A stretch of 64,000 nt of DNA, taken from Escherichia virus TH47. Below are positions 5,429 to 22,756 of the stretch, in pieces. Location of the stretch: the sequence record MT446416.1. One strand, written 5' to 3'. Numbering within the stretch: position 1 is the first letter of the stretch; every line of letters starts with the position of its first letter. Position numbers and translations under genes: made by a program. The notes beneath the pieces were generated by a model, which worked only from the letters and a program-made list of their open reading frames with translations, was not told where the DNA came from and did no database searches.

Positions 5429-6768
5429 AAATAGATTATTATTATGATGGTCAATTTCGTCGAGTACTGAAACATCTTATCAGAGTGTTTGGTGAATTTC
5501 AAGTACAAAATGGTGTTGATGCTGACGGAAAACCAAAATATAAGAAAGTTCCTTGCCGCTATGCAGATATTTCACGTATGGCAGCAGCAATTATTAATGG
5601 TAACAGTGAGAACGTGCTTCCAACAGCACCAATCATGACCATTAGTGTAAACCAACTTAAACTAGATCGCAAGTCAGTTCGTTCAAACGCAAATGAAACA
5701 TTAGTTATGGGGACTAACAAGTCCCCTGGAATTAACGAATATACTAAAGACTTAGATAAACAGTATAAAGTAACTCGTCATAACCCAGTACCTTGGACAT
5801 TTACGTTTGATGTTAATATTTGGGTTACACAAACACAAACTAAAATGGAACTATTTGAGCAAATTTCAACATTGTTTGCTCCTAGTATTCAATTACAACT
5901 CTCCGAGAACCCACTGGATTGGACATCATTGAGTGATGTGGAGTTGATTGACTGTCAATTTACTACTCGTGGTTTCCCACAAGGAACCGATAGTGATTTG
6001 GATATAATGGTATTGACATTTGAAACCACAATTTGGTTCTCTTTGCCAGCTATTGTTGAGAAACCAAAACTTATCCAACAAATCACCACCAATATTAAAG
6101 GTGCTCGTGATGAACTTGATTTTGAAATTGGTAATTACTCGGATATCATTACTGATGTATTCACACCAAAGAACTTATGTATTAAAGTTGATGAAATAAC
6201 AAACTCTGAACTTAATATCCCAGATACTTACCAACTCACTCTTGTTAGTCAATCACTATCAGAAACATCACCAAATGGTGGGATTTATTCATGGGAAAAA
6301 TACCTTAAGTACTTGGACCCAGAATATGAAGACAAGACTGTAGGTATTAAATTCCAACAAGCTATAGAAGAGGATAACCCACTAAAAGGACATATCTCTT
6401 CATTTGGGGAAGGGGCTGATTCTAACAAGATTGTAGTTCAGCTTGATAATAGTAATTATACTGTTGATTATACAATACATGGATTCATTAGTAAAGACTC
6501 TTTGTTATATAACGCACTACCTGAACAATATTATGTAAATAATAGCATACATAACATCATTTACAAAGAGACTGAAATCCCAGCGAACTATTTGTTTAAA
6601 ATTACCAATGATGGAGCAGAACTTATTGAGCCATCGCGAGTACACCACTATGTTTATAATATGGAAGATAGTGGATATTATAGATATAATGACAAATTCA
6701 AATGGCATAAGAGTATTATGTCAGTATATCGTCAGGGATATTGGAAAATAACTTTCACTGACAAATAA
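5425..6768 (+). CDS. hypothetical protein, possible virion (neck/tail completion) protein
   Basis: 447-aa ORF translationally coupled to the upstream gene; AAGGA RBS; no catalytic motif. Confidence 0.6.
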   Translation: MKIDYYYDGQFRRVLKHLIRVFGEFQVQNGVDADGKPKYKKVPCRYADISRMAAAIINGNSENVLPTAPIMTISVNQLKLDRKSVRSNANETLVMGTNKSPGINEYTKDLDKQYKVTRHNPVPWTFTFDVNIWVTQTQTKMELFEQISTLFAPSIQLQLSENPLDWTSLSDVELIDCQFTTRGFPQGTDSDLDIMVLTFETTIWFSLPAIVEKPKLIQQITTNIKGARDELDFEIGNYSDIITDVFTPKNLCIKVDEITNSELNIPDTYQLTLVSQSLSETSPNGGIYSWEKYLKYLDPEYEDKTVGIKFQQAIEEDNPLKGHISSFGEGADSNKIVVQLDNSNYTVDYTIHGFISKDSLLYNALPEQYYVNNSIHNIIYKETEIPANYLFKITNDGAELIEPSRVHHYVYNMEDSGYYRYNDKFKWHKSIMSVYRQGYWKITFTDK

Positions 6769-9009: not shown

Positions 9010-9507
9010 TTAGTAGTTAATTAAAATTTGTTCTAACTTACCAGCTAAACTTTTTTGTACATCAGATGGATACTTGCTAATGTAATCACGGTCAATACCA
9101 ACTTTCAGATAGGTAAAGTTTCCGGTTAAGGTTTCAGCGAATGTACCAGTTGTACCTTGTTCTCTAATAAGGTCACCACCATTTGGGTTAAGAATGACAT
9201 TATCAGTAAATTCAAGATAGAAGTTGCAGCTTTCGGTAAATTTAATTGGGAACCAATCATCGTCCGATGGATTACTTGCCAGTGTAGCGAGTACGTAAAT
9301 TCTACCAATGAAGTTACGTAGGGTAAAGGATATTGTATGTAATCCTGTAGTACTACCATAATAGCCGCCACTAGCTAATGATAATGTTTGTTCGTTCCAA
9401 TGATAATCTAAGTTAGCAGGATACCAGCTATCTGATTCAGGAAATTCTTGCCATGAACCATCTTTAGTTTTTCTTTTGAAGAGGAAGTCTTTTGATCTTA
9501 ATGCCAT
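9010..9507 (-). CDS. hypothetical virion protein
   Basis: 165-aa ORF, RBS AAGGG; first gene of a 3-gene minus-strand operon divergent from the fibre genes. Confidence 0.5.
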   Translation of the reverse strand: MALRSKDFLFKRKTKDGSWQEFPESDSWYPANLDYHWNEQTLSLASGGYYGSTTGLHTISFTLRNFIGRIYVLATLASNPSDDDWFPIKFTESCNFYLEFTDNVILNPNGGDLIREQGTTGTFAETLTGNFTYLKVGIDRDYISKYPSDVQKSLAGKLEQILINY

Positions 9508-9616
9508 TGTTAAGCCCTTTTAGTAGTGAACTTTCATTTATTTATTAATGGCAACGAAATGTATTTTGTACTGATAAATATTGGTATATGACATTAACTC
9601 ATACAAGGGAAATATT

Positions 9617-10744
9617 ATGACAATTTCATTCAACAATGGGTCAGGTGGTTCATGTAATAATTCTGGCATCAAAAGTTTAGTTATTAACGCTGCTGGACAT
9701 TTAATTGTAACCTATTCCGACAATACAATCCAAGACCTAGGTCTAGTGGTTGGACAAAATGGTGCTAACGGTAGAAACTTTTATCCAAATGAGATAGGTT
9801 TTGAAGTTCCTAATGAACTCTTCCGTGTTGGTGAAGAACTAGGGTGGTGTTATCTTAGTCTTGCAAATGGCACTAGTACTTTATATTTTAAATCAAACGA
9901 TGCACAAGAAGAAATTAGTACTTGGAACCGTGTAGAGTTTGGTAAAGGTGATACTGGCGAAACTGGTAAACCATTCCACATTGACAGTTCTGGTACGGTG
10001 TTTCCAACAACTGGTCTTTTCAATAATTACACATTCTATAATACTGAAGATGGTAAATTATATTTCTATCAAAGCGTAACTGCAACATGGAGTGATGGTA
10101 TTCCTTTCCGTGGTGAACAAGGTCTACGTGGTCGTTTCCATATTGATAGTACTGGTAGTCAATTCCCAAGTATTGATAATCTACCACAAGATTATTGCTT
10201 CTATAACACTACTGATGGTAATTTGTATTATGTTGATATCGTAACTACATCATCAACCCCAACTAAAGAGTGGAGTGCTGGAATCTTATTCCGTGGTAAA
10301 GACGGTGAAGAAGGTAAGCAAGGTGAGCAAGGTGTTCAGGGTGAACCTGGTAAAGACACAGTTGTTATCATCAACACTATTGATCATTCATGGACTAACG
10401 CATTGTTAGTTATTGGTACATGCCCTGCTGGATACCTAGTAACTAATATCGAAGTTGACATTAATCAAGCATATGATGAACCAGTAAATGAAATGTTTGT
10501 ACGTTTCGGTGGTGAAGCACAAGAAGATATTGGTGGTACTGTAATTGCACCTGTTGATTATTTCGATATCAACCGCAAAATGCGTTACATTGTTAACGAA
10601 ACCAACCACGAAGTATCAAGTAAAGATGAAATCATTTCTTGTGTATTCAATGATTCCGTAAACAACAGTTCATTTGGTGAAATGAAGATCGTTTGTACTT
10701 TATCATGGCAAGCACCTATTCAGCCTATTCAAGATAACATTTAA
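9617..10744 (+). CDS. tail fibre protein with collagen-like G-X-Y repeats
   Basis: start at ATG 9617 with AAGGGAAA RBS (track starts at TTG 9581); three Gly-X-Y runs (e.g. GKDGEEGKQGEQGVQGEPGKD), each followed by an FHIDSxG-type repeat. Confidence 0.65.
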   Translation: MTISFNNGSGGSCNNSGIKSLVINAAGHLIVTYSDNTIQDLGLVVGQNGANGRNFYPNEIGFEVPNELFRVGEELGWCYLSLANGTSTLYFKSNDAQEEISTWNRVEFGKGDTGETGKPFHIDSSGTVFPTTGLFNNYTFYNTEDGKLYFYQSVTATWSDGIPFRGEQGLRGRFHIDSTGSQFPSIDNLPQDYCFYNTTDGNLYYVDIVTTSSTPTKEWSAGILFRGKDGEEGKQGEQGVQGEPGKDTVVIINTIDHSWTNALLVIGTCPAGYLVTNIEVDINQAYDEPVNEMFVRFGGEAQEDIGGTVIAPVDYFDINRKMRYIVNETNHEVSSKDEIISCVFNDSVNNSSFGEMKIVCTLSWQAPIQPIQDNI

Positions 10745-10758
10745 AAGAGGGTTGATAC

Positions 10759-10825
10759 ATGGCAGTTTTTTCCAATTTAGAAGGGACCATGATGCCAACA
10801 TTCAAGTTGGGTAAACGTGGTGCTT
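10759..10825 (+). repeat. shared N-terminal module, copy 1 (MAVFSNLEGTM...)
   Basis: about 65 nt near-identical to 12915-12981 at the 5' ends of two adjacent fibre genes. Confidence 0.7.
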
Positions 10826-12900
10826 CTATTAATTTTGTAAACGATTCTGTCGCAATCAAAGACTTTTTAGGTGAAACGTTCCTACCTGTTAAGGTGGGAA
10901 CTCCTAATGACGATGATTCCGCAGTAAACGTTATGTATCTTGAAGATAACCCAAATGCTTTATTTGGCGTACTTCCACCAACAAATGACATTGGTAAAAA
11001 TAACAACACTTATTTTCAAGTTGATTCTGAGGGTATTGTTGATATCTTTGCAAAAACAAATGATGTTTGGGTAAAATCATTATACATTAATAAAAATGTC
11101 CTTTCCAGTGTTAACGGTGCTGATTATATCGGACTTATTACTGGAGGAACACTCCAACAGGCACAGTTTTACATAACTCCAGAAGAGTTTGGTGCAAAAG
11201 GTGATGGCATCACTGATGACACGGCAGCGGTTAACGCATGTGCAGTTTATGCAAAAGAACACCAAATCCAAATTCAAGCTGGTGGTAATTATCGTATCAG
11301 AACTGCTGTTTATTTGAATGATATTCAATGGTTTGGTGGAACAATCACTGGCAACGGTGGCACAATGGTATCAGTACTGAATAGTACAATCCAACAAGCA
11401 ACATTAACAGGATGTTATTTAAAATTCTTTGGTGGTGATGGTAAATTTTATTTTAATAAATTTATTAATATTACAAGTACTGCTACATTTCTAATGCAAG
11501 GTATGACTGAATCAGGTACTATCGACTTTTGCTTTAATGAAATGACACAATGTAAGTACGGTGTTCTTCAGCAAGGCACTGGTGAGAAAATGACAGTTGG
11601 GCGTTATTCATACAACCACATCCATGATATATATGGTGATGCAATTGAATTGAACGTAGTCAACTCACATTACCCAGACGGTTTTGTAATAGAAGGTAAC
11701 TTGATTGAAAACGTAGATGGTACAGATGCACCAATTCCTCTTTCAAACTGGGGTATTGGTATCGGCGTTGCTGGTTCTGGTCCTTATGATGTGAATGCTG
11801 ATGATTCACAATATGTAAAAAAATTCGTTATAAAAAATAACCGCTTGTACAATGTCCGTCAATGTATTCACGTTGAGTTGGGTAAAGACTTTAAAATTCT
11901 CAATAATGAAGTTTATCCATCAACGTTGGTATCAATTGGTACTGGTTTGACAACCGCTGGTGTAATTACTTATGGTTCTGTTGATTTTATTATTGATGGC
12001 CTATCTGGGCATCTATTAAATGATCCATCAGTAACTAACCGTATGGTTTCTATTAACTGGGGTGTAACATCTGGTAAATTTGCTGGTCCTCCACGTAACT
12101 TTAAATTATGTAATCTCCACATTCCTGAGTCGTCTATTATTGTGTATACTTCAGGCTCTGATAATTGGCTAAATACTACTGAACTTTCTAATATTACATG
12201 TAGTAGAATTCAATGGCGTGGATTGCCGTCATCTTCCAAGTTTAATAATATCAGTACTAAAGAACTTGATGTTATTGGACAACACCTTGCAACTGAAGGT
12301 GAAGGAGGGGGCTTATATACTCGCTCTAAATATACATATACCAACTGGACTAATTGTGTTGTTCAAGATGATTGTAACATATCAAAATATAGTTTCTCAA
12401 GAATGTATGTTGACCGTATTGACCAATCATCTAATAACTTTAAAGTAACCACTGCAATTGATGGAACTGGACATCGTGGACCTGTAGTAATACCTGTAGT
12501 TGAACAGTATTACGTGCCTTATGATGTTTTTCCTGGTGGGAGATATTTCCCAGAAGGAACAATTATCCATAAACAATCAGGTGGAAAATTTATTGTTACA
12601 GTAGGTGGTTCTTTCTTTGGTCGATATGACACAATTAGACAAACAGTTGCAGGACAAACTTATATCGAAGCATTGGGTGTATCATGGGGTGATAATCAAT
12701 ATGCTAAAGCTGCTGGAACCGAAATCCTAATCACAGGAGCAGGGGAAAACGGCGAAGATTTAAAAACATATATCACTAGAGCAGTTTATGTTGTTAATAA
12801 TGCGTATCGTATCGATATTGCCGATCCGATTGTTACTGCTACCGCAGCAGGGGCATTATTGAAAGCTGCTCAACCAATAACATATATCACCCTATCTTAA
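10759..12900 (+). CDS. tail spike/fibre with pectate-lyase-like beta-helix domain (candidate depolymerase)
   Basis: motif EEFGAKGDGITDDTAAVNA typical of pectate-lyase-superfamily tailspikes; N-terminal MAVFSNLEGTM module shared with the next gene. Confidence 0.65.
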   Translation: MAVFSNLEGTMMPTFKLGKRGASINFVNDSVAIKDFLGETFLPVKVGTPNDDDSAVNVMYLEDNPNALFGVLPPTNDIGKNNNTYFQVDSEGIVDIFAKTNDVWVKSLYINKNVLSSVNGADYIGLITGGTLQQAQFYITPEEFGAKGDGITDDTAAVNACAVYAKEHQIQIQAGGNYRIRTAVYLNDIQWFGGTITGNGGTMVSVLNSTIQQATLTGCYLKFFGGDGKFYFNKFINITSTATFLMQGMTESGTIDFCFNEMTQCKYGVLQQGTGEKMTVGRYSYNHIHDIYGDAIELNVVNSHYPDGFVIEGNLIENVDGTDAPIPLSNWGIGIGVAGSGPYDVNADDSQYVKKFVIKNNRLYNVRQCIHVELGKDFKILNNEVYPSTLVSIGTGLTTAGVITYGSVDFIIDGLSGHLLNDPSVTNRMVSINWGVTSGKFAGPPRNFKLCNLHIPESSIIVYTSGSDNWLNTTELSNITCSRIQWRGLPSSSKFNNISTKELDVIGQHLATEGEGGGLYTRSKYTYTNWTNCVVQDDCNISKYSFSRMYVDRIDQSSNNFKVTTAIDGTGHRGPVVIPVVEQYYVPYDVFPGGRYFPEGTIIHKQSGGKFIVTVGGSFFGRYDTIRQTVAGQTYIEALGVSWGDNQYAKAAGTEILITGAGENGEDLKTYITRAVYVVNNAYRIDIADPIVTATAAGALLKAAQPITYITLS

Positions 12901-12914
12901 AGGAGATTATAAAA

Positions 12915-12981
12915 ATGGCAGTTTTTTCTAATTTAGAAGGAACCATGAAGAAGACCTTCATACTTGGTAAAAATGGTGCAC
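12915..12981 (+). repeat. shared N-terminal module, copy 2
   Basis: near-identical to 10759-10825. Confidence 0.7.
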
Positions 12982-13814
12982 AAATTGCCACTAATGGTAA
13001 TGTTGTTCAAATCCAGAACTACACGGGTACACAACTTCTTCCTGTTTCAGCAGGTGACCCAACCGCAAATACACACTTGGTTACATTGGGTTATTTGAAT
13101 ACACATAGCGGTGGTGGTGGCGGTTCCGGTATTTTACGTGGAACTATTGCACCATCTGAATCAATTGGTGTAGATGGTGACGCTTACTTCTTAGTTGACA
13201 GTACTAATATTATTCAGATCTATATTAAAGACCTTGGTGTTTGGAAACCTCTCCAAAGCACAACTCCAGGTACTGATAGTTCTTACGTTACTACTGAAAT
13301 CGTTCCTGTATCGGCATTTACATTAGTTCCTGGAACAACAGATCAATATACTTATTCTTTACCTGAATCAGTACATGGTCGTGGTCCAGATATTATGGTT
13401 CAGCTACAGGGTGACCCTGGTAACATCCCACTTGACACTGTATTCCAAACTAACGTCACTGTGAGTGGTATTGGTGACATTACGATTGATGTTATTGGTC
13501 AAATCACTGATTATACAAGTGTCAAAGTCAACATCATAGGAGCAACAACAATGACAGTACCTTATAGTAAATTAATTAACCAAGCGGATTGGGTAGTATC
13601 TAGTGATGAATACACCATTACTATCCCAGCGTCTGAACATAACCAAACACCTGATAATTTGTATATTTCAATTTATTCAAATAAAACTCCAGGTAGCACA
13701 GCAGCATCACCATTTGAACTGGTAATAACCGAAACTCAAATTGATGCAAGTGGTAATGTTACATTCACTTCTGACGAAGCGTTTAGTGGTAAAATAGTAA
13801 TTTCTGGTAAATAA
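12915..13814 (+). CDS. tail fibre protein (paralogous N-terminus, distinct C-terminal domain)
   Basis: N-terminus MAVFSNLEGTMKKTF matches 10759 gene; AGGAGA RBS; poly-Gly linker GGGGGSG. Confidence 0.6.
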   Translation: MAVFSNLEGTMKKTFILGKNGAQIATNGNVVQIQNYTGTQLLPVSAGDPTANTHLVTLGYLNTHSGGGGGSGILRGTIAPSESIGVDGDAYFLVDSTNIIQIYIKDLGVWKPLQSTTPGTDSSYVTTEIVPVSAFTLVPGTTDQYTYSLPESVHGRGPDIMVQLQGDPGNIPLDTVFQTNVTVSGIGDITIDVIGQITDYTSVKVNIIGATTMTVPYSKLINQADWVVSSDEYTITIPASEHNQTPDNLYISIYSNKTPGSTAASPFELVITETQIDASGNVTFTSDEAFSGKIVISGK

Positions 13815-13822
13815 AAAAAATA

Positions 13823-13857
13823 GTCCAGACTACGATTCATCGAGTCTGGATTTTTTA
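13823..13857 (+). terminator. rho-independent terminator
   Basis: stem TCCAGACT/AGTCTGGA followed by TTTTTT. Confidence 0.6.
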
Positions 13858-13932
13858 TATCAATAACTAAATATATGTATATTAACAAGGTCAAATGTAT
13901 TTTATGCTTTTTGCCTATTTGGAGGGAACTAA

Positions 13933-16900
13933 ATGTACTCGATTAAAACAGATCTCGATATAACTGGTGGTGCAACGGTTGGTAAAGATCTTCTTGTGAA
14001 AGGCGATGCAGTATTCAATAAAAATCTAACAGTTAATGGAACCGTAACTTTTGCTGACGCTGTATTCACTGCGATTGAAGCAGGAACTGTAGACATTTCA
14101 TCTACACTAGATGTTGCTGGTAAAGCATCATTGAATGGTGGGATTGAAGTTCATGGTAATTCCGTAATTGGTAATTTACCAGTTGGCTCTGATACTGCAA
14201 CGATTAATTCTAATGCACAATTCCAAAGCCCAGTATCAATGGCAGGTAACCTAACACAAACGGCTGGCACTGCTGTACTAAAAGATACCCAAGTGGCATC
14301 AATGGATGTTCTTGGAACTTCTTCATTTAAAGGTAATATTACTGCTGAAACTGGCACTACCGCAGCATTTGACAAAATAACTGCAACTGATGCAACATTC
14401 ACAAACACTGCAACTACTGATATCACATCAACTGGAACTGCAAACTTTAAAGATGTGAATATTTCCGGTACACTAGGTGGAACATTTAGTCTATCTGATG
14501 TTAATGCAACAACTCTAACTGTTTCTGGTTTAACCAGTCTACAAGGTGGTGTTACATTAGGTTCCAACATTACTGGTGTGAATAGTAGTGCAAACTTCCG
14601 TGATATTAAAATTGGTTCCAATGCTGCAAACACTAACTACCGTTTGAGCTTTAACTATTCTGCTCCAAGTCTTCGTCCAACTGTAATTCTACAGAACGAA
14701 ATCCAATCAGAATTGATGTCTCCAGCTACCCTAAGTGTATTGAAAACTGCATCTTTTGGTGATTCGTCATTATCCACTTTTGGTATTACTGGTAATGGTC
14801 TAAACAAACTAGATTACCTAACAGTATCTGGTAACTCTGTTCAAGATCCAACAACTCCACTATTACAAGTAACTTCAGGTAAAACTAAAGTTCATGATTT
14901 CGAAGTAACAGGAACTGCAACTATTCCTAACATTGAAAGTACTGGAACTGCTAATTTTAATAACATCAACGTATCTGGTACACTCGGCGGTACTTTCAGT
15001 CTTGATGATATTGAAGCAAACACTCTAACTGTTTCTGGATTAACTAGCCTTGTTGGTGGTGTAACTTTGGGTGCTGATATTTCCGGTGCTAATAGTACTG
15101 CTAATTTTAAAGCAGTAAGTTTAGGACAAAACGCAGCCGATGCTAACGTTAAGTATGGTTTTGCTTATTCTGCCCCTGGTGCACGTCCAACTGTAATTCT
15201 ACAAAATGAAATTCAGTCTGAACTAGTATCTCCAGCAGTACTAAATGTACAAAAAACTGCTACCTTCGGTGATGCATCTCTTGCAACCTATGGTATCACA
15301 GGTAACGGTCTAAACAAACTAGATTATCTATCTATTACTGGTAATGGTACACAAAGTCCAGCAACGCCACAACTACAAGTAGCTGGTAAATCAGTACTAA
15401 ATGATGTTGAATTCACTGGTACTGTAACTGGCCTAACAGTTGATGTAAGTGGTCAAGACCTAACTCCTAAATCTGTTGTTGCTGCTGAAGCAATCAAAGG
15501 ACAAACCCTTGAATCTGTTGGTCAAACCACCGTAGGAACTAACCTACAAGTTGGTGGAACAGCTAATGTTGTTGGTGCACTAACTGGTACTGCTGCAACC
15601 TTTACTGGTGACGTAAGTGCTGCTAAAGGTACTTTCAGTGGTGATGTTAGCGTTACTGGGCAAACTGTAACTGTACGTGATTTAGTAGTAACTGGCACAA
15701 CTACTGGTGTAACTGCCCAAGCTGACGTTGATGGTCTTGATATCGCCCCAAATAAAGTTGATGTTACAACAACACTATCTGTTGCTGGGGACACTACTTT
15801 AGCTGGTCTAACTGCTAGTTCAGTAACAAGTACTGGTGATGTTACTGGTGCGTCTGTATCTGGTAATACAGTAACTGCGGCTGGTGCACTATCTGGTGGT
15901 TCTCTTGCAGTAACTGGTGCTGGTTCTATGGCTTCACTAACTGTTCCAAGTATTACTGGGGACACTACTTTTGCTAATAACGTAACTATTACTGGAACAC
16001 TAACTCCGAGTAGTATAGATTTAAGCACTACTGATGTAAGTGCTGCTTCTTTAACAACTACTGGTAACGTAACTGTTGGTGGTTCTCTTGCAGTAACTGG
16101 TGCTATTGATTTGTCTGCTGCTGATGTAGTAACAAAATCAGTTAGTGCAACTAACCCAAGTACATTTGGTGTAATTAATGCATCTTCTGTTGCCGCAACT
16201 GGTGACGTTTCAGGTGGCACTCTAACTACTACTGGTGCAGCGAAAGTAGGAACACTAACTAGTACTGGTGTAGTATCTGGTTCGCGTTTGTCTTCTGGTA
16301 CTGCAACAATCTCAACTTCTGTAACAGTTCCAACTTTACAAGCTGAAGCTGCTGGTGCTGGTACACTAAATCTAGCAAGTAATGTTGTCGCGGCAAAAGA
16401 TCTAACTGTCACTGGTGTATTCAAACCTGAAGGTGGTCTTGACCTAACAACTGTTGATATTACTGCAAACTCACTAACTACTACTGCTGATGTTAATGTT
16501 GGTGGAAACTTAGTAGTTGATGGTACTTTTGACCTAAGTGCTGCTGATGTATCAGTTAAATCTCTTGTAAGTGCAGAGGCAATTACTAGTGGTGGTGTGA
16601 TTACCGTTACCGATTCAACCAATACTAGTTCGTTCCCTAAAATTACTTCAACTGATGCAACACTCTTTACAGTAAATGCAGGTACTATTAATGCAACTGG
16701 CAACAGTGTACTACAAAGTGTATCAGCTACTCAAGTAACTGCTACTAGTGCTGAATTTTCTGGTAGTGGCCTTGGTCTTCAAGTTGATAATGATGCAAAC
16801 GTTGGTGGTGCATTATCTGTTGGTGGCATTGCAACTGTTGGTTCTTTAACAACAACTGCTGCTTCTCTTAATATTGCAAAAAATACTGCAATCAATGGTG

Positions 16901-18891
16901 ATTTAGCTGTATCTGGTACACTAACTGCTGGTTCAATCGACCTAAGCAATACTGATGTAACCGTTAAATCTCTTGATTCACTAGGTAACGCACACATTGC
17001 TGGTAACCTAACTGTTGATGGTGCATTCGACTTAAGTGCAACTAACCTTGTAGCTGCAAGTCTAGCAAGTACTGGTTCTACTACTGTTGGAACTGATCTA
17101 GTACTAACAACTGGTGTTGTGACTGGTAGCCCAGCTATCTCTGGTAATACAACAATCGGTGGAACTCTTGGTGTAACTGGTGCTGTTAACCTAACTGATA
17201 TTGTTAATATCGGTAAGAAAGTAACAGTGAGTACTGGTGGTATTCAGGTAGTTGATGGTGGTATCAATACTAACACAATTAACGTTTCTGGTGCTACTAC
17301 TCTAGCAGGAACTTCCATTACTGGAACTTTAGGTGTAACTGGTGCTTCTACTCTAGCAGGTGTATCTGCAACATCACTAACAGTTTCTGGTGACAGTACT
17401 GTTCAGAAACTAACTGTCCAAGGTGAATTGATCCCACAAGGTGGTCTTGACCTAAGCGGTGCAGACATTACTGCTAATAGTCTAACTACTGCAACAACTA
17501 TCAATGCAACTGGCCTAAGTACTCTAAGTGGTGGTGTTAGTACTTCTACTGTGACTGCATCTGGTCTAGCAACTGTTGGAAGTTTAACTTCTACTGCAAA
17601 CGCATCAGTTGGTGGTAATTTGGGTGTAACTGGAACTCTAGGTGTTACTGGTGCAACTACTGTATCTTCACTAACAGCTACTGGTGCAGTGAAAACTGGT
17701 ACAACCCTAACTGTTGGTACTCCAGTTGGTGAACAACCTGAAACTGTACAGATCATTCCAGATACTTATATTGCTGGTAAATTGCGTGTAATCGGCGGTA
17801 TTAACGCTGATATTGATGTTAGTGGTCAAACACTAGAACCATATGCAATTGAAGCTGCTGCAACACTATCTGCTGTTGGTAACATTACTTCTGGTGCAAC
17901 CATCGTTTCTAAAGCTGCAACAATTGGTGATGTTGGTTCACAAAACAACAACCTAACTGTTAATGGTAACGTAGTAACTAATGGTGACTTCACAGTTACT
18001 GGGGTACTAAATGCACAATTGAACCAAGCAGATTCCGATGTAGCTGTTAAATCTTTAACTGCAACTAATAACGTTGCGGCTGGTACTTCAATCACTGCTG
18101 GTACTTCCATCACTGCAACTGGATTACTTAAAGGTAATACTTTAGAAGTTACTACTACTGGTTCATTTGGTGGTGCAGTAACTATGTCAAGTGGTGCAAA
18201 CATCACTGGTACAGTGGGTATTACTGCTGGTGACCTAACAGTAGGTGGTAATATCTCTGCAACTGGCACTGCTGGATTCGGTGCAACAACCGTTTCTACA
18301 ATTACAACATCAGGTTTGGCTACACTTGCAAGTACATCCGTTACTGGTAACGCAACAGTAGGTGGAACACTAGCAGTAACAGGAGCACTAACTGCGAATG
18401 GTAACGTAACATTAGGTGACGCAGCGGCTGACGTTCTAACCGTTAATGCAACTTCATCATTTAAAGAAAATGCTGTGTTTGATAAGGCAGTAACAGTAAC
18501 TGGTGAACTAACCACTACTAATGCTAACTTAACTACTACAACAGTAACTACCAAAAAGTATGATGTAATCCCAACTCAAGTTACATCATCAGTAATTGCT
18601 CCAACCGGAACATGGACTCCAGATGGTACAAGTAACGTGTACTTCATCACTCTAGACCAAGATACCACGTTGGCTCCAATTACTGGCCTAATTGGTGGCG
18701 GTAAAGCTGCATCAGTATACATCTATGTTAAACAAGATACAACTGGTAACAGAAACTTTACAACTGATGGTACTTATGCTGTTGTTGATGGTGAACTAAA
18801 CAAAACTGCTGGTAGCGTGACCATTTACCAAGTAATTTATGATGGTGTAAGTCCAGTTACTGATTTGTTCATTGCACAACGTACTGCTTAA
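13933..18891 (+). CDS. giant fibrous protein (1652 aa), probable long tail fibre
   Basis: GGAGGG RBS; Thr/Gly/Ser/Val/Ala-rich repetitive sequence with recurring LTVSG, VTGT and GNxT motifs; internal tandem duplication. Confidence 0.7.
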   Translation: MYSIKTDLDITGGATVGKDLLVKGDAVFNKNLTVNGTVTFADAVFTAIEAGTVDISSTLDVAGKASLNGGIEVHGNSVIGNLPVGSDTATINSNAQFQSPVSMAGNLTQTAGTAVLKDTQVASMDVLGTSSFKGNITAETGTTAAFDKITATDATFTNTATTDITSTGTANFKDVNISGTLGGTFSLSDVNATTLTVSGLTSLQGGVTLGSNITGVNSSANFRDIKIGSNAANTNYRLSFNYSAPSLRPTVILQNEIQSELMSPATLSVLKTASFGDSSLSTFGITGNGLNKLDYLTVSGNSVQDPTTPLLQVTSGKTKVHDFEVTGTATIPNIESTGTANFNNINVSGTLGGTFSLDDIEANTLTVSGLTSLVGGVTLGADISGANSTANFKAVSLGQNAADANVKYGFAYSAPGARPTVILQNEIQSELVSPAVLNVQKTATFGDASLATYGITGNGLNKLDYLSITGNGTQSPATPQLQVAGKSVLNDVEFTGTVTGLTVDVSGQDLTPKSVVAAEAIKGQTLESVGQTTVGTNLQVGGTANVVGALTGTAATFTGDVSAAKGTFSGDVSVTGQTVTVRDLVVTGTTTGVTAQADVDGLDIAPNKVDVTTTLSVAGDTTLAGLTASSVTSTGDVTGASVSGNTVTAAGALSGGSLAVTGAGSMASLTVPSITGDTTFANNVTITGTLTPSSIDLSTTDVSAASLTTTGNVTVGGSLAVTGAIDLSAADVVTKSVSATNPSTFGVINASSVAATGDVSGGTLTTTGAAKVGTLTSTGVVSGSRLSSGTATISTSVTVPTLQAEAAGAGTLNLASNVVAAKDLTVTGVFKPEGGLDLTTVDITANSLTTTADVNVGGNLVVDGTFDLSAADVSVKSLVSAEAITSGGVITVTDSTNTSSFPKITSTDATLFTVNAGTINATGNSVLQSVSATQVTATSAEFSGSGLGLQVDNDANVGGALSVGGIATVGSLTTTAASLNIAKNTAINGDLAVSGTLTAGSIDLSNTDVTVKSLDSLGNAHIAGNLTVDGAFDLSATNLVAASLASTGSTTVGTDLVLTTGVVTGSPAISGNTTIGGTLGVTGAVNLTDIVNIGKKVTVSTGGIQVVDGGINTNTINVSGATTLAGTSITGTLGVTGASTLAGVSATSLTVSGDSTVQKLTVQGELIPQGGLDLSGADITANSLTTATTINATGLSTLSGGVSTSTVTASGLATVGSLTSTANASVGGNLGVTGTLGVTGATTVSSLTATGAVKTGTTLTVGTPVGEQPETVQIIPDTYIAGKLRVIGGINADIDVSGQTLEPYAIEAAATLSAVGNITSGATIVSKAATIGDVGSQNNNLTVNGNVVTNGDFTVTGVLNAQLNQADSDVAVKSLTATNNVAAGTSITAGTSITATGLLKGNTLEVTTTGSFGGAVTMSSGANITGTVGITAGDLTVGGNISATGTAGFGATTVSTITTSGLATLASTSVTGNATVGGTLAVTGALTANGNVTLGDAAADVLTVNATSSFKENAVFDKAVTVTGELTTTNANLTTTTVTTKKYDVIPTQVTSSVIAPTGTWTPDGTSNVYFITLDQDTTLAPITGLIGGGKAASVYIYVKQDTTGNRNFTTDGTYAVVDGELNKTAGSVTIYQVIYDGVSPVTDLFIAQRTA
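14422..15453 (+). repeat. tandem duplication of a ~516-nt (~172-aa) unit inside the giant fibre gene
   Basis: two consecutive diverged copies (STGTANF..NxSGTLGGTFSL..TLTVSGLTSL..RPTVILQNEIQSEL..GITGNGLNKLDYL..). Confidence 0.6.
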
Positions 18892-18910
18892 TAATTATAA
18901 TAAAAAAAAC

Positions 18911-18934
18911 GGTGTCATCAATTATGGTGACACC
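18911..18934. terminator. hairpin between fibre genes (A-run upstream, no T-run downstream on + strand)
   Basis: stem GGTGTCA/TGACACC; orientation best suits a minus-strand terminator or an RNA-processing structure. Confidence 0.3.
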
Positions 18935-18957
18935 ATCTTAACAAGTGAGGTAGTTAT

Positions 18958-19737
18958 ATGTTTACATATGTAAAAGGTAGTTCTAAAGAAAATTATGAAT
19001 TGGGTAACATCATCTCCAACCCAGTTGGTGTTAAGGGTTTAAAAGAACGCCCTGGGGCAACTCCAGATGATGAACAAACATATCGTTATTTGTACAGTGA
19101 TATTCGTGCACTTTATGGTATTTCAAGTAAAGATGGTTCTGAAATTGAACCTAATAACGCTGTTCGCAAAGAAGAGGGTTTCTGGTGGTTGGAATATAAG
19201 AATGTTGGTAATGTGAACGCAATTAATGAGAATTTGGAATATATTAAACTACAAGATAGTAATCAACCAGTCATCACATTCTTAGAAGAAGCAGAAGGTG
19301 AATATAAAGAGTTAACAGTACTGAAAACTTATAATTATGTTGATATGGACATTGCAGCAGTTAAATCTGATCTGAAAGCACGCACAGTATCATCTCGTAG
19401 TGATCGTATTAATGCTGGTTATATGTTTAACGGTCATCGTTATAGTACTGATCTAGCTGGTCGTCAAATGCTTCTTAATTATTATACACAAGTAACTTCC
19501 GGTTCTGATAGCGTTTCGATTTTCCTTGATGACGCAATTGTAAAACTATCTGCTGCTGAAATGACTCAACTATACACTGAAGCATTTGCTATGGTTGAAT
19601 CCCTATTTGCAGAGTGTAATAAGCAATGTGCTGACATTGATGCAGTTCCTGATGCTGATGAAGATGCAATTTATAAAGCACAACAGGCGGCTGTATGGGT
19701 ATATGAAGGTATTGATATTCCTGAGCGTACTCGTTAA
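18958..19737 (+). CDS. hypothetical protein, possible tail-fibre assembly/chaperone
   Basis: 259-aa ORF with GTGAGG RBS immediately after the giant fibre gene; assignment by position only. Confidence 0.45.
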   Translation: MFTYVKGSSKENYELGNIISNPVGVKGLKERPGATPDDEQTYRYLYSDIRALYGISSKDGSEIEPNNAVRKEEGFWWLEYKNVGNVNAINENLEYIKLQDSNQPVITFLEEAEGEYKELTVLKTYNYVDMDIAAVKSDLKARTVSSRSDRINAGYMFNGHRYSTDLAGRQMLLNYYTQVTSGSDSVSIFLDDAIVKLSAAEMTQLYTEAFAMVESLFAECNKQCADIDAVPDADEDAIYKAQQAAVWVYEGIDIPERTR

Positions 19738-19751
19738 TTTATATTTTTTTT

Positions 19752-19784
19752 AAAGGTCAACTATGGTTGGCCTTTTCTTTTATC
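19752..19784 (+). terminator. rho-independent terminator
   Basis: stem AAGGTCAAC/GTTGGCCTT (one mismatch) followed by T-rich run. Confidence 0.5.
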
Positions 19785-19829
19785 TAAAATAAATACTTAA
19801 TATATAATCTATTCTGAGGAAATATTTAA

Positions 19830-21794
19830 ATGAGTATAAATCGAATTAGAGGTGATGGTGGTGTAATTATAGATAGTCAGGCATTTCTAGAATTACCTAA
19901 AGCACCGACTAAAGAAACCGCTGATGTGGTTAGATCAGGGATGATTAGATACAATAAAGGATGGAAAGCATTTGAAGGTGTACTAGACTTTGAAGATGGT
20001 TCAATGGCATATCGACGTTTTGCAAACCTAGATGCGAACGGTAAACTTCTTACTTCCCAATTACCAGATTCAGTAACTAGTGGTTTACAATTTGTTGGTA
20101 CATATAATCCCATCCCAGATGATATCGATCCACCTTTAGCACAAACTCCACTACCAGCACCATCACCATCGCTTAATGGTGATTATTATGTCGTTCGTGG
20201 TATAATGGATGCCGCACAAGCACATTATGAAGCAAATAATCCACAAACAAGTCCTGTTACATTTACACCTACAAATCCAACTGGACAAGGTAATTGGATT
20301 GAAATTTTATATTATGTTGACTCTAATCCAAATATATCTGGTGCTAAACTAGTAACATACGCTTTTGCTAGAATTATTACTGCATCTATTCCCAGTACTG
20401 GACATGATGGCCTTGAAAATTTAGCAACAGATACTGACTTGACCAAACCATTTGCATCTGGTGTTCCAATGAACCAAACTGCACTTTCAGATGGCGATTG
20501 GATTATTATAACTGAAGATAAGAATATACGTCTTCGTCAGTCAAGAACAAGCATTTCCGCTGCTTCAGTATTATATGACAATACTGTAATGATTGCAAAT
20601 CATCGTCAATTTAGAACAAACGCAGGGACCGTTCAAACATCCATAGATAACGTTGTGATTGAGTGTTTACGTAGAACTGGCGATTCCATGTATAATGATG
20701 GAACAGACGGCTCTGGGCGTTTTGGGGTGGTGTATGGCAGTGCAGCAGCACCAGCATTGACATTTAATAATAATCCGTTTGACCCAACGAATAACCCAGG
20801 TAATGACCCAACTAAGTGGTCCGATGCTAATACTGGTATATTTCATCCATCCGATGACGCAATTGGGTTCAGCACTGCTGGCACAGAACGTGTTCGAATT
20901 AATAATGGAACACTAACATTATTCCAAACTACCGCTACACCAGCAGCTACGCCAGTAATACGTTTTGATAATGCATCAAACACAAACGTAGGGATAAGTG
21001 CAAGTAGTAATATTATTTCTTTAAGTTCAATGAATAAAGTTCAAGTTGAATTTAAAAATGGTGAATCACATTTTCATGGAAATATTATTGTAGATGGTTC
21101 AACATCACTAACTGGTGATTTAGACGCAGGTAACATCAATGCCAGCGGGAATTTAGTTGTTAAAGGTAATACAACACTAGGTGACACTACTGGTGACACT
21201 ATTACAGTTAATGGTGTTAGTACTTATAATGCAAATACTAATTTCAATGGAACTAATAACAAATTCAAAAACATAAACTTACTAGAGAATGGTGTATTCA
21301 CATTAGAAAGTACTACAAACCAAAGTGATATAAAACTACTTGGTGCAGACTTACGTTTCACTATGGGAAGTTATGCTGATGTAAGTATATATGATAACGG
21401 TGTTATTCGTACTCGTTTCAACCGATATGGTATTCAATTACCAGTACTGGCTACAATTGATAACTCGGTTGGTGTTGATGGTATGATTGCATACTCAAAT
21501 ACCGAACGTACATCGATGCAGAAGGTTCAAGGACAATGGGTTCCAATTGGTTCTGGTTCTGTTCGTACTGACCCGTTTGTTGCGTCAGCGTGGGTTTTAA
21601 ACGGCTCATATTACACATTAACAGTAACTGCTAGTAACATAGTAACTGCTGAAATTCAAGAACTCGTAAGTACTGGTGTTTACACTCGTGTTGAAGTTGA
21701 TAGTGTTACATTCAATGGAACAAGCGTAGTGTTCAGTATCCCTGCAACTCCTGATGTGAGATTTGCCGGACGTACACTGGTTACATTAAGATAA
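19830..21794 (+). CDS. tail fibre protein
   Basis: 654-aa ORF, GAGGAAA RBS; Asn/Thr/Gly-rich with fibre-type repeats; ends at bidirectional terminator. Confidence 0.55.
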   Translation: MSINRIRGDGGVIIDSQAFLELPKAPTKETADVVRSGMIRYNKGWKAFEGVLDFEDGSMAYRRFANLDANGKLLTSQLPDSVTSGLQFVGTYNPIPDDIDPPLAQTPLPAPSPSLNGDYYVVRGIMDAAQAHYEANNPQTSPVTFTPTNPTGQGNWIEILYYVDSNPNISGAKLVTYAFARIITASIPSTGHDGLENLATDTDLTKPFASGVPMNQTALSDGDWIIITEDKNIRLRQSRTSISAASVLYDNTVMIANHRQFRTNAGTVQTSIDNVVIECLRRTGDSMYNDGTDGSGRFGVVYGSAAAPALTFNNNPFDPTNNPGNDPTKWSDANTGIFHPSDDAIGFSTAGTERVRINNGTLTLFQTTATPAATPVIRFDNASNTNVGISASSNIISLSSMNKVQVEFKNGESHFHGNIIVDGSTSLTGDLDAGNINASGNLVVKGNTTLGDTTGDTITVNGVSTYNANTNFNGTNNKFKNINLLENGVFTLESTTNQSDIKLLGADLRFTMGSYADVSIYDNGVIRTRFNRYGIQLPVLATIDNSVGVDGMIAYSNTERTSMQKVQGQWVPIGSGSVRTDPFVASAWVLNGSYYTLTVTASNIVTAEIQELVSTGVYTRVEVDSVTFNGTSVVFSIPATPDVRFAGRTLVTLR

Positions 21795-21801
21795 TAAAAA
21801 A

Positions 21802-21828
21802 GGGAGACATAAGTCTCCCTTTTCTTTT
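21802..21828. terminator. bidirectional rho-independent terminator
   Basis: stem GGGAGAC/GTCTCCC flanked by A-run and T-run between convergent fibre and thymidylate synthase genes. Confidence 0.65.
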
Positions 21829-22756
21829 ATACAGCCATTGGTGCTTTGATTGTTGGCATTGGATCGTAATTAACTAATTTGAAAGAATCCATAGTGAAAT
21901 CTTCAATATCAGTAATAGTAGGATCTAACCATAATTCTGGTAATGTACGTGGTTCACGTTGGAGTTGCTCTTTTACTTGTTCAATATGGTTTTGATAGAT
22001 ATGGCAGTCGCCACCATTCCAAATAAATTCACCAACATCTAACCCAGTAATTTGTGCAATCATATGAGTTAGTAGTGAGTAACTACTAATGTTAAATGGT
22101 ACACCAAGGAATAAATCAGCACTGCGTTGATGAAGAATACAACTTAGTTTACCCTGTACAACACAAAACTGCACAAAGCTATGACAGGGTGGCAAAGTCA
22201 TAGCATCAAGCTCACCAACGTTCCATGCACTTAGAATGTGACGACGACCGTATGGATCAGTATTGATACCTTCAATAACTTGTTTTAGCTGGTCAGTTAC
22301 ACGACGCATAATAACACCATGTGAACCAGTATAATCAATAACTTTATACCCTTTATCTTTTAGTTCTTGAATTTCTTCAGTACTGGAACTGAATTTATAA
22401 TCTTCCCATTCACGCCATTGTTTACCATAAACTGGGCCAAGCTCACCATCAGAATACCCAAGGCTTACACCTTGATTAAGGTAGTTGTCTGTCCAAATTG
22501 TTTTCTTTTCTACATCACGTGTCCCGTGTAAAATTTCACACAGACGACGCTCATCGTGAGAACCTTCAATAAACCATAACAATTCTGAAGTCATTGCTTT
22601 CCAAGCCAAACGTTTAGTAGTTACTGCTGGGAAACCTTCTTTTAGGTCAAAACGCATTTGTTGTCCGATTAGCTTGATAGTGCCAACACCAGTACGATCA
22701 ACGCTTTCGACACCTTGATCCAGAATTCTTTGATATAGTTCTTGTAGTTGTTTCAT
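21827..22756 (-). CDS. thyA: thymidylate synthase (ThyA/T4 td type)
   Basis: motifs RTGVGT, FPAVTTKRLAWK, ELGPVYGKQWR, ILSAWN, LPPCH, SADLFLGVPFNISSY and C-terminal PMAV; no intron interruption. Confidence 0.9.
   Translation of the reverse strand: MKQLQELYQRILDQGVESVDRTGVGTIKLIGQQMRFDLKEGFPAVTTKRLAWKAMTSELLWFIEGSHDERRLCEILHGTRDVEKKTIWTDNYLNQGVSLGYSDGELGPVYGKQWREWEDYKFSSSTEEIQELKDKGYKVIDYTGSHGVIMRRVTDQLKQVIEGINTDPYGRRHILSAWNVGELDAMTLPPCHSFVQFCVVQGKLSCILHQRSADLFLGVPFNISSYSLLTHMIAQITGLDVGEFIWNGGDCHIYQNHIEQVKEQLQREPRTLPELWLDPTITDIEDFTMDSFKLVNYDPMPTIKAPMAV

Follow-up and report, generated by a model that had tools for sequence, protein, structure and literature searches.

We analysed a stretch of 64,000 nucleotides of DNA from Escherichia virus TH47 (MT446416.1), referred to below as the window. 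Positions 9617-21794 of this stretch hold six consecutive genes on the plus strand, between genes for baseplate and tail proteins and the gene for thymidylate synthase. We consider it probable that this segment is the host-recognition (tail fibre) module of the phage, composed of six late genes whose products would act stepwise during infection. The open reading frames (ORFs) of the module, with lengths in amino acids (aa), are the following.

9617-10744, plus strand: ORF1, 375 aa, probable core tail protein with beta-modules, G-X-Y runs and a Cys-containing C-terminal domain
10759-12900, plus strand: ORF2, 713 aa, predicted colanidase tailspike with an anchor module at aa 1-104 (DNA 10759-11070) and a beta-helix hydrolase body at aa 96-712
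12915-13814, plus strand: ORF3, 299 aa, probable core virion protein with the anchor at aa 1-64, a 45-aa beta repeat at aa 65-112 and two immunoglobulin-like (Ig-like) beta-sandwich domains
13933-18891, plus strand: ORF4, 1652 aa, long tail fibre by homology
18958-19737, plus strand: ORF5, 259 aa, DUF4376 tail-fibre chaperone by homology, possibly a fibre cap
19830-21794, plus strand: ORF6, 654 aa, fibre-like, probable core virion protein

The initial annotation of the window had placed five consecutive fibre or spike genes here. Its coordinates and its long plus-strand ORFs were right, but ORF5 had been overlooked and the genes number six. For the five long ORFs chance can be ruled out, because full-length homologues are found in dozens of jumbo phages. 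The start codon of ORF1 is the ATG at 9617; in the family alignment all homologues begin with MTISF.

Megablast with positions 9500-21900 recovered 55 phage records, the top one being Escherichia phage fEgEco12 with 97.7% identity, followed by BF17 and Turkey3. The group of 121Q, PBECO4, phAPEC6 and SHEFM2K matched at ~80%. Judged from these matches, with which the flanking genes fit, the source of the window is an Asteriusvirus-type, RaK2-like jumbo myophage. In the upstream flank are the end of a gene for a virion protein of 3324 aa and the genes for a sheath stabiliser resembling T4 gp15 and for a NUDIX protein, together with three virion-protein genes on the minus strand; downstream, the thymidylate synthase gene (21827-22756, minus strand) is convergent with ORF6. 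The gene order of the module is shared by more than 50 jumbo phages. In the Asteriusvirus loci (fEgEco12, BF17, Turkey3 and Ecwhy_1, and farther away 121Q, PBECO4, phAPEC6 and SHEFM2K) it is flanked, as in the window, by thyA and by the three virion genes of the minus strand. ORF1, ORF2, ORF3, ORF5 and ORF6 are 99-100% identical to their counterparts in fEgEco12 and 81-90% identical to those in phAPEC6 and SHEFM2K. Homologues of ORF1, ORF3 (or its anchor) and ORF6 are syntenic beside thyA in RaK2, CBB, fENko-Kae01, phAPEC6, SHEFM2K and fEgEco12. The RaK2 locus differs in that these three are its only homologues and ORF2, the giant fibre and the chaperone are missing. By sequence comparison the cluster belongs, as a near-identical member, to a module for which sequences and a loose annotation already exist in dozens of jumbo phages.

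The body of ORF2 (aa 96-712) matches gp150 of phage Phi92 (PDB 6E0V/6E0W) with an E-value of 3.8e-233 and 56% identity over 617 aa, the alignment covering residues 11-623 of the gp150 chain; ORF2 also matches phrog_6117. This homology shows the ORF2 body to be a putative colanic-acid hydrolase of the Phi92 gp150 type, forming a beta-helix tailspike of the trimeric type. Both the predicted fold and the predicted substrate, colanic acid, follow from the identity to this solved chain. According to a 2026 paper on Phi92 (PMC13450770), which cites the biochemical work, gp150 cleaves colanic acid by hydrolysis of its beta-1,4 Glc-Fuc bond, and for this reason the predicted ORF2 enzyme is a hydrolase on a pectate-lyase-like fold and not a lyase. 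The product of 10759-12900 had been annotated as a pectate-lyase-type beta-helix spike and a candidate polysaccharide depolymerase. The spike and the depolymerase are borne out by the gp150 homology. Of the pectate-lyase label the fold can be kept but not the lyase activity, and the match to the pectate-lyase-like Pfam family PF12708 is by itself sub-threshold (20.1 bits against a cut-off of 27).

The likeness to gp150 extends from the neck to the C-terminus, and the same substrate is expected for both enzymes, whereas the first ~95 aa differ; in ORF2 these are the anchor that is common to ORF3 of RaK2-like phages. The virions also differ, Phi92 being a 148-kb myophage and the carrier of ORF2 a 350-kb jumbo phage. 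Bodies 56-57% identical to that of ORF2 occur in Phi92-like coliphages, and the colanidase may have arisen by fusion of the anchor to the body common to these phages. Within RaK2-like phages the colanidase is, judging by its distribution, an accessory gene, because it is missing from the equivalent loci of RaK2, CBB and fENko-Kae01 and is internally deleted in phage JP4 (locus L008, 4001-4606). The JP4 deletion is in frame and removes residues ~151-659, so that the anchor and the C-terminal 53 aa remain. The accessory genes of the module appear to decay readily. We also tried the NCBIfam model WcaM for the colanidase and rejected it (93 bits, far under the cut-off of 795); this sub-threshold match is the source of the label "colanic acid biosynthesis protein" in some records.

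The N-terminal regions of ORF2 (aa 1-104) and ORF3 (aa 1-110) are 41% identical. To look for further occurrences we ran HMMER in full against 1.84 billion representative proteins, with ORF3 residues 1-115 as the query, and the scan resolved the region into two sub-parts, residues 1-64 and 65-112. The first sub-part, which we call the anchor (10759-10950 in ORF2 and 12915-13106 in ORF3; motif MAVFSNLEGTM..F.LGK.G..), forms the very N-terminal end of proteins that are 99-1218 aa long and differ widely in their cargo. The cargo includes the colanidase family, a Beta_helix protein on an unrelated 120-kb contig, a Peptidase_S74 chaperone spike and a BNR-propeller protein, and there are also cargo-free anchor proteins of 113-205 aa. 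Some of the anchor-bearing metagenomic contigs are not RaK2-like (anchor loci L010 and L011, at 6001-6192). The second sub-part is a ~45-aa repeat that reaches up to 14 copies in long proteins, some of them with collagen repeats or an LPXTG anchor. In RaK2 the orthologue of ORF3 has shrunk to the 115-aa module alone. A search of the PDB with the 66-aa anchor returned no relative. From this distribution we infer that the first 64 aa are a docking anchor and that the colanidase got its place on the virion by acquiring it. ORF2 and ORF3 would then dock at the same kind of site.

Conserved N-terminal domains are also central to an alternative that we regard as quite improbable, in which the proteins of the module are joined through such domains into one multi-adhesin tree, a branched fibre of the RaK2/phiKp24/CBA120 type. 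The adsorption complex of RaK2 and phiK64-1 (gp098, gp526-gp534) does resemble the module, since it belongs to related jumbo phages and its conserved N-terminal domains mount enzymatic spikes. However, the branched fibres of RaK2 (gp526-gp534) are encoded in another cluster and comprise seven depolymerases, whereas the module has a single enzymatic spike. No significant T4 gp10-like (XD) or tailspike protein (TSP) D1/D2 branching domain was found by Pfam, PDB profile or fold search, and in micrographs of phAPEC6, CBB and fEgEco12 the baseplate bears six short fibres that are not ramified. Of the multi-adhesin or branched apparatus originally proposed, we therefore keep an apparatus of several fibre and spike components, but not the branching.

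ORF4 had been annotated as a giant fibre of 1652 aa, and it is indeed a long tail fibre by homology. Thr, Gly, Ala, Val and Ser make up 63% of the protein. Its layout consists of an N-terminal part of ~147 aa, a duplicated module (tandem copies of ~170 aa at aa 148-316 and 317-507, 66% identical), a repetitive T/G/A/V/S-rich shaft (~aa 520-1500) and a tip (~aa 1520-1652). ORF4 belongs to the tail fibre family phrog_4549 (E-value 1.9e-200) and, aligned from end to end, shares 39% identity with the "long tail fiber" of fENko-Kae01. Residues 1418-1649 match a 793-aa tail-fibre chain in the cryo-electron microscopy model of phage phiTE (PDB 9CUY_g/9MJN) in four stretches, with an E-value of 1.8e-32. 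We assume from its length that chain g of 9CUY is the phiTE long tail fibre. Over its last 220 aa ORF4 shares 88% identity with the homologues in SHEFM2K and phAPEC6, 52% with that in CBB and 42% with that in fENko-Kae01. These comparisons place the putative tip in one family with the phiTE chain and with the fibres of SHEFM2K and fENko-Kae01.

Flagella are a recurring theme among the owners of these fibres. phiTE is a flagellotropic myophage, whose long fibre is described as a trimer on the baseplate wedge and is predicted by AlphaFold to form an extended beta-helix. The jumbo phage fENko-Kae01 does not adsorb to non-flagellated mutants. SHEFM2K, an Asteriusvirus, is reportedly flagellotropic. 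The phiTE fibre, like those of Certrevirus, rV5-like and Phapecoctavirus phages, resembles ORF4 in the C-terminal ~230 aa and in the T/G/V-rich shaft repeats of beta-helical type, whereas ORF4 is twice as long and has the extra duplicated ~170-aa module. Some GenBank names for genes of this module in relatives are misleading (L001, 7260-9401; CMSTMSU, hit H7), the giant fibre being recorded as "flagellar hook-length control protein" or "long tail fiber proximal subunit". Within ORF4 there are also three antisense ORFs, at 15522-16703 (393 aa), 17826-18554 (242 aa) and 14151-14633 (160 aa), all on the minus strand. We rejected them as genes; their translations are of low complexity and look like a by-product of the Thr/Gly/Ala/Val codons.

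The gene overlooked earlier, ORF5, starts 66 nt past the end of ORF4, and the same order of fibre and then chaperone is found in CBB, fENko-Kae01, phAPEC6 and SHEFM2K. Its residues 136-237 match PF14301 (DUF4376) with 37.8 bits against a gathering cut-off of 25. DUF4376 proteins encoded just 3′ of fibre genes in Alteromonas and Campylobacter phages have been called fibre chaperones or "chaperone caps". By this homology ORF5 is a putative DUF4376 fibre chaperone. Alteromonas V22 gp27, A5 gp9 and Campylobacter F341_034 share with it the C-terminal PF14301 domain and the position of the gene directly 3′ of the fibre, but the N-terminal part of ORF5 (aa 1-135) is larger and Asteriusvirus-specific. 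Sequence or profile searches of the PDB with ORF5 gave nothing significant. We link ORF5 to ORF4 because its divergence tracks that of the tip (81% identity with SHEFM2K and phAPEC6, 27% with CBB and 29% with fENko-Kae01), because RaK2 lacks both, and because its homologues are abundant in CBB and fENko-Kae01 virions. The abundance in mature virions of relatives is also the reason to think that the cap may be permanent rather than transient.

An alternative concerns the position of the long fibre on the virion. phAPEC6 and CBB carry "hairy" whiskers of ~120 nm on the sheath and capsid, and the ORF4 product could be such a whisker, entangling cells or flagella. The genes for the hairs are unassigned, ORF4 homologues are present in virions, and the baseplate fibres in micrographs are short (~29 nm). 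The hairs of CBB measure 119 nm, and scaling the phiTE fibre (793 aa, 512 Å) to 1652 aa gives ~107 nm as a rough estimate. Nevertheless, we think this placement unlikely. The tip family is that of the baseplate-attached tail fibres of phiTE, rV5-like and Phapecoctavirus phages, the gene lies within a baseplate and fibre module and is followed by a chaperone gene of the kind found with receptor-binding proteins, and attachment to the capsid would require another anchor. GAP32 also has an ORF4 homologue, though hairs are unreported for this phage. We therefore continue to treat ORF4 as a putative baseplate-attached tail fibre.

The window differs from its nearest relatives in the number of giant fibre genes. 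fEgEco12 carries two in tandem, g317 (1644 aa) and g316 (1906 aa), and pairs are present also in BF17, Turkey3, Ecwhy_1 and vB_Ec-M-J, whereas the window has a single gene of 1652 aa. Over its body ORF4 shares 94.5% identity with g317, and over the last ~180 aa it matches g316 at 100% identity. The change from one type to the other takes place in the following zone.

18094-18266, plus strand: crossover zone of the hybrid fibre gene, g317 type upstream and g316 type downstream

Sites that differ between the paralogues are almost all g317-like up to 18093 and mixed between 18102 and 18250, and then 258 consecutive sites are g316-like. Such a pattern implies either a deletion of ~5.8 kb by homologous recombination between tandem paralogues or a collapse during assembly. 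The g316 tip is of the 121Q type, and the hybrid leaves this tip adjoining its chaperone gene. The 121Q-type phages have one giant gene, of 1841 aa, the shaft of which is 52% and the tip 88% identical to ORF4. Neither the exact ORF4 protein nor the 65-mer spanning the junction was present in any of the collections that we scanned (viral, genome and metagenome contigs), and the event is for this reason unique so far.

An assembly artefact, in which two tandem genes of the fEgEco12 kind collapsed across their similar C-terminal regions, would explain the absence of the protein and the junction from public collections. Two giant genes are present in all nine closest relatives checked or listed, and the junction lies where the paralogues are most alike, with identical runs of up to ~80 bases. 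On the other hand, the paralogues are ~94% identical near the junction, a difference that most assemblers resolve. ORF4 keeps an unbroken reading frame, and its sites change cleanly and only once from the g317 type to the g316 type, as expected from homologous recombination. The state with one giant gene is also viable, as seen in the 121Q, phAPEC6 and SHEFM2K lineage. On balance we find an artefact rather unlikely and favour a real deletion between the paralogues. Another irregularity was noticed in vB_Ec-M-J (locus L002, 9260-11402 and 12435-17355), where the colanidase gene and the first giant fibre gene are each annotated as two coding sequences, which reflects either a frameshift or a sequencing error.

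Taken together with the distribution of the anchor, the hybrid allows a broader proposal, which we put forward tentatively and to which we would give a little less than an even chance. The anchor may be a portable plug, by which RaK2-like and some other phages place interchangeable cargo on one baseplate socket normally filled by ORF3, the colanidase being a recent capture by anchor duplication, while the hybrid fibre would show that recombination between tandem paralogues reshuffles shaft and tip within a single genome. If this is true, the plug anchor and the reshuffling of tips beside the chaperone would amount to a simple rule, open to engineering, by which flagellotropic jumbo phages could be retargeted.

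The families of ORF1, ORF3 and ORF6 occur in all RaK2-like phages and in no others, with length and sequence maintained from host to host. ORF1 belongs to phrog_13565 ('tail protein', E-value 2.5e-213) and shares 71% identity with RaK2 ORF062w and 60% with the homologues in CBB and fENko-Kae01. It consists of three beta-modules of ~55 aa, all of which end in a short G-X-Y run, followed by the Cys-containing C-terminal domain. The runs are located at aa 46-52, 111-117, 166-172 and 227-245 and have 3, 3, 3 and 7 glycines. They are not random (0 of 5000 shuffles) and their glycines are conserved in the family, and local triple-helical segments are therefore plausible in this protein. As a description of the whole, the collagen-like fibre of the initial annotation goes too far: four short runs are there, but the longest has 7 glycines and the match to Pfam Collagen (PF01391) reaches 16.9 bits, under the gathering cut-off of 27.2.

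For ORF3, the AlphaFold2 (AF2) model, with a predicted local distance difference test (pLDDT) score of 80, contains the anchor and two Ig-like sandwiches. ORF6 belongs to phrog_14293 and has 117 homologues, almost all of 590-770 aa. Identity is 51-53% with CBB, fENko-Kae01 and GAP32, and 49%/34% with RaK2 ORF060w, which lacks aa 366-526. The AF2 model of ORF6 (pLDDT 79) has an alpha/beta N-terminal region, a middle part of beta-hairpins and beta-helix-like structure, and an Ig-like C-terminal domain. Foldseek gave no significant match for ORF6, the best being T4 gp34 and the Mu fibre (E-value 0.012), plus a Bdellovibrio fibre. Sequence or profile searches of the PDB with ORF1, ORF3 and ORF6 returned nothing significant. 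Two features of ORF6 concern the long fibre. Residues 424-473 resemble the pre-tip segment of ORF4 (aa ~1467-1517). The block that RaK2 lacks (aa 366-526; 20925-21407) is beta-helix-like, and RaK2 is the sole lineage that is also without the giant fibre and the chaperone. These features may hint that ORF6 and the long fibre interact.

The three proteins remain 45-70% identical, including their C-terminal domains, across phages of E. coli, Klebsiella, Erwinia, Pectobacterium and Cronobacter. Because of this we regard ORF1, ORF3 and ORF6 as probable core structural tail proteins rather than variable adhesins, and as unlikely to set the host range; they probably correspond to the short fibres and adaptors that micrographs show at the baseplate. 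The earlier picture of five fibres with different receptor-binding architectures was thus overstated. Alternatively, ORF1, ORF3 and ORF6 could be true adhesins for separate receptors, forming a five-way multivalent adsorption device as in Phi92, where several fibres share one baseplate. All three belong to the virion and have fibre-like or Ig-like domains, binding to glycans is common among Ig-like and lectin-like domains, and ORF1 has weak lectin matches (E-values 0.05-0.1). We find this doubtful, since known host-range determinants diverge or get swapped, as the ORF4 tip and ORF2 do here, while these three stay conserved across hosts, and since of ORF3 RaK2 retains only the anchor.

Published proteomes of related virions are consistent with most of the module being structural. 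CBB virions contain homologues of all five non-enzymatic proteins, ORF1, ORF3, ORF4, ORF5 and ORF6 (CBB_224 to CBB_228), among them CBB_228 for ORF1 and CBB_224 for ORF6 (22 peptides), and the ORF5 homologue was covered to 68.5%. In fENko-Kae01 virions the homologues of ORF1, ORF3, ORF4 and ORF5 were found, and in those of phAPEC6 the homologues of ORF1 (gp253, 65.6% coverage) and ORF4. The refutation foreseen in the initial annotation, a failure of virion mass spectrometry to detect the proteins of the run, is thus contradicted by the relatives for the five non-enzymatic proteins. In the proteomes covered only the colanidase is without support; its homologue gp254 is not among the phAPEC6 virion proteins listed.

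From all this we propose the following order of events for the host-recognition module. In the first step the long fibre, folded and perhaps capped by ORF5, would make the first, reversible contact with the host, probably with the flagellum. In the second step the spike, mounted via the shared anchor, would cut through colanic acid. The conserved short proteins ORF1, ORF3 and ORF6 may then contact conserved structures of the cell surface and pass on the trigger for contraction. The first two steps are proposed because of homology and the published phenotypes of relatives.

Besides the missing gp254, several observations weigh against this scheme. Regarding the first step, comparison with the 9CUY chain gave no match between the ORF4 N-terminus and the helical "rip-cord" bundle by which the phiTE fibre binds the baseplate wedge and the sheath initiator; ORF4 begins directly with T/G/V-rich repeats resembling its own shaft. 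The authors of the phiTE study favour the short fibre as the first binder of the flagellum, and dependence on flagella is known for relatives only. Regarding the core proteins, the ORF6 homologue is unlisted in two of the three virion proteomes (phAPEC6 and fENko-Kae01), the ORF1 homologue was not found in the RaK2 proteome, and the AF2 models of ORF3 and ORF6 have no significant match to a solved fibre or baseplate protein. In the cryo-electron microscopy study of phAPEC6, no genes could be matched to the baseplate fibres or to the "hairs" on sheath and capsid. More generally, no protein of the module has been located in an Asteriusvirus virion.

New in this analysis are the hybrid fibre gene, the identification of ORF5 as a chaperone, the split into core and accessory genes, and the portable anchor. 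Asteriusvirus jumbo phages have been proposed for therapy against avian pathogenic E. coli (APEC), O157 and uropathogenic E. coli (UPEC), and we did not find a dissection of their adsorption apparatus in the literature. The parts list given here contains one accessory enzyme with a predictable substrate, colanic acid, a capsule that E. coli makes under Rcs envelope stress. Host range is likely to be set by the long fibre together with its chaperone, and the three conserved proteins are probably best left unengineered. The shared anchor and the natural hybrid of shaft and tip mark possible sites at which new spikes or tips could be grafted. The understanding of phage tail fibres is left unchanged by these results, whose value is practical and incremental.

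Regarding expression, each of the six genes is preceded by a Shine-Dalgarno sequence, in agreement with the ribosome-binding sites annotated earlier. The terminators said to separate the genes are present in part. The gaps between ORF1 and ORF2 and between ORF2 and ORF3 are 14 nt each and have no hairpin, but strong hairpins (-11.8 to -17.3 kcal/mol; z-scores -4 to -6) lie 3′ of ORF3, ORF4, ORF5 and ORF6.

13824-13856, plus strand: terminator-like hairpin with a T6 run (-17.3 kcal/mol, z -5.7), ending the ORF1-ORF2-ORF3 unit
18911-18934, plus strand: 10-bp hairpin after ORF4 with no U tract (-15.5 kcal/mol, z -6.1), 23 nt before the start of ORF5
19752-19783, plus strand: intrinsic-terminator-like hairpin with a T run after ORF5 (-11.8 kcal/mol, z -4.0)
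21798-21823: bidirectional terminator common to ORF6 and the convergent thymidylate synthase gene (-16.6 kcal/mol, z -5.9)

The hairpin after ORF4 probably attenuates or stabilises the transcript, and since it has no U tract, ORF5 may be co-transcribed with ORF4. From the positions of the hairpins and the hairpin-free 14-nt gaps, the likely transcription units are ORF1-ORF2-ORF3, ORF4 (with ORF5) and ORF6, three or four in all.

Upstream of two of these units we found an element resembling a late promoter.

9574-9580, plus strand: ATAAATA late-promoter-like element, 43 nt upstream of ORF1
19789-19795, plus strand: ATAAATA late-promoter-like element, 41 nt upstream of ORF6

ATAAATA occurs 35-57 nt upstream of 7 of the 69 long ORFs in the window, against 0.35 expected from its genome-wide frequency. 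The other sites precede the minus-strand ORFs 9010-9507, 30788-31333, 31337-31870, 34887-35573 and 35961-38624, and the tail sheath gene is among the genes with the element. In distant relatives ATAAATA is kept upstream of the homologues of ORF1, ORF4 and ORF6, for ORF1 in RaK2, CBB and fENko-Kae01. This suggests that ATAAATA is the core of a T4-late-like promoter and that ORF1 and ORF6 are co-expressed with other structural genes. The canonical T4 late promoter TATAAATA is depleted in the 64 kb, with 1 exact site against ~8 expected. A scan for sigma-70 promoters was discarded, as it returned 34 sites against 46.5 in shuffled sequence, that is, fewer than by chance. We also rejected the 11-mer AAATGTATTTT, which is common to the upstream regions of ORF1 and ORF4; once one mismatch is allowed it is no more frequent than expected by chance, and other lineages have not kept it.

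Finally, homologues of the neighbouring thymidylate synthase have been found in the virion proteomes of phAPEC6 and fENko-Kae01. These virion-borne homologues recall old reports according to which Td is said to be present in the T4 baseplate.

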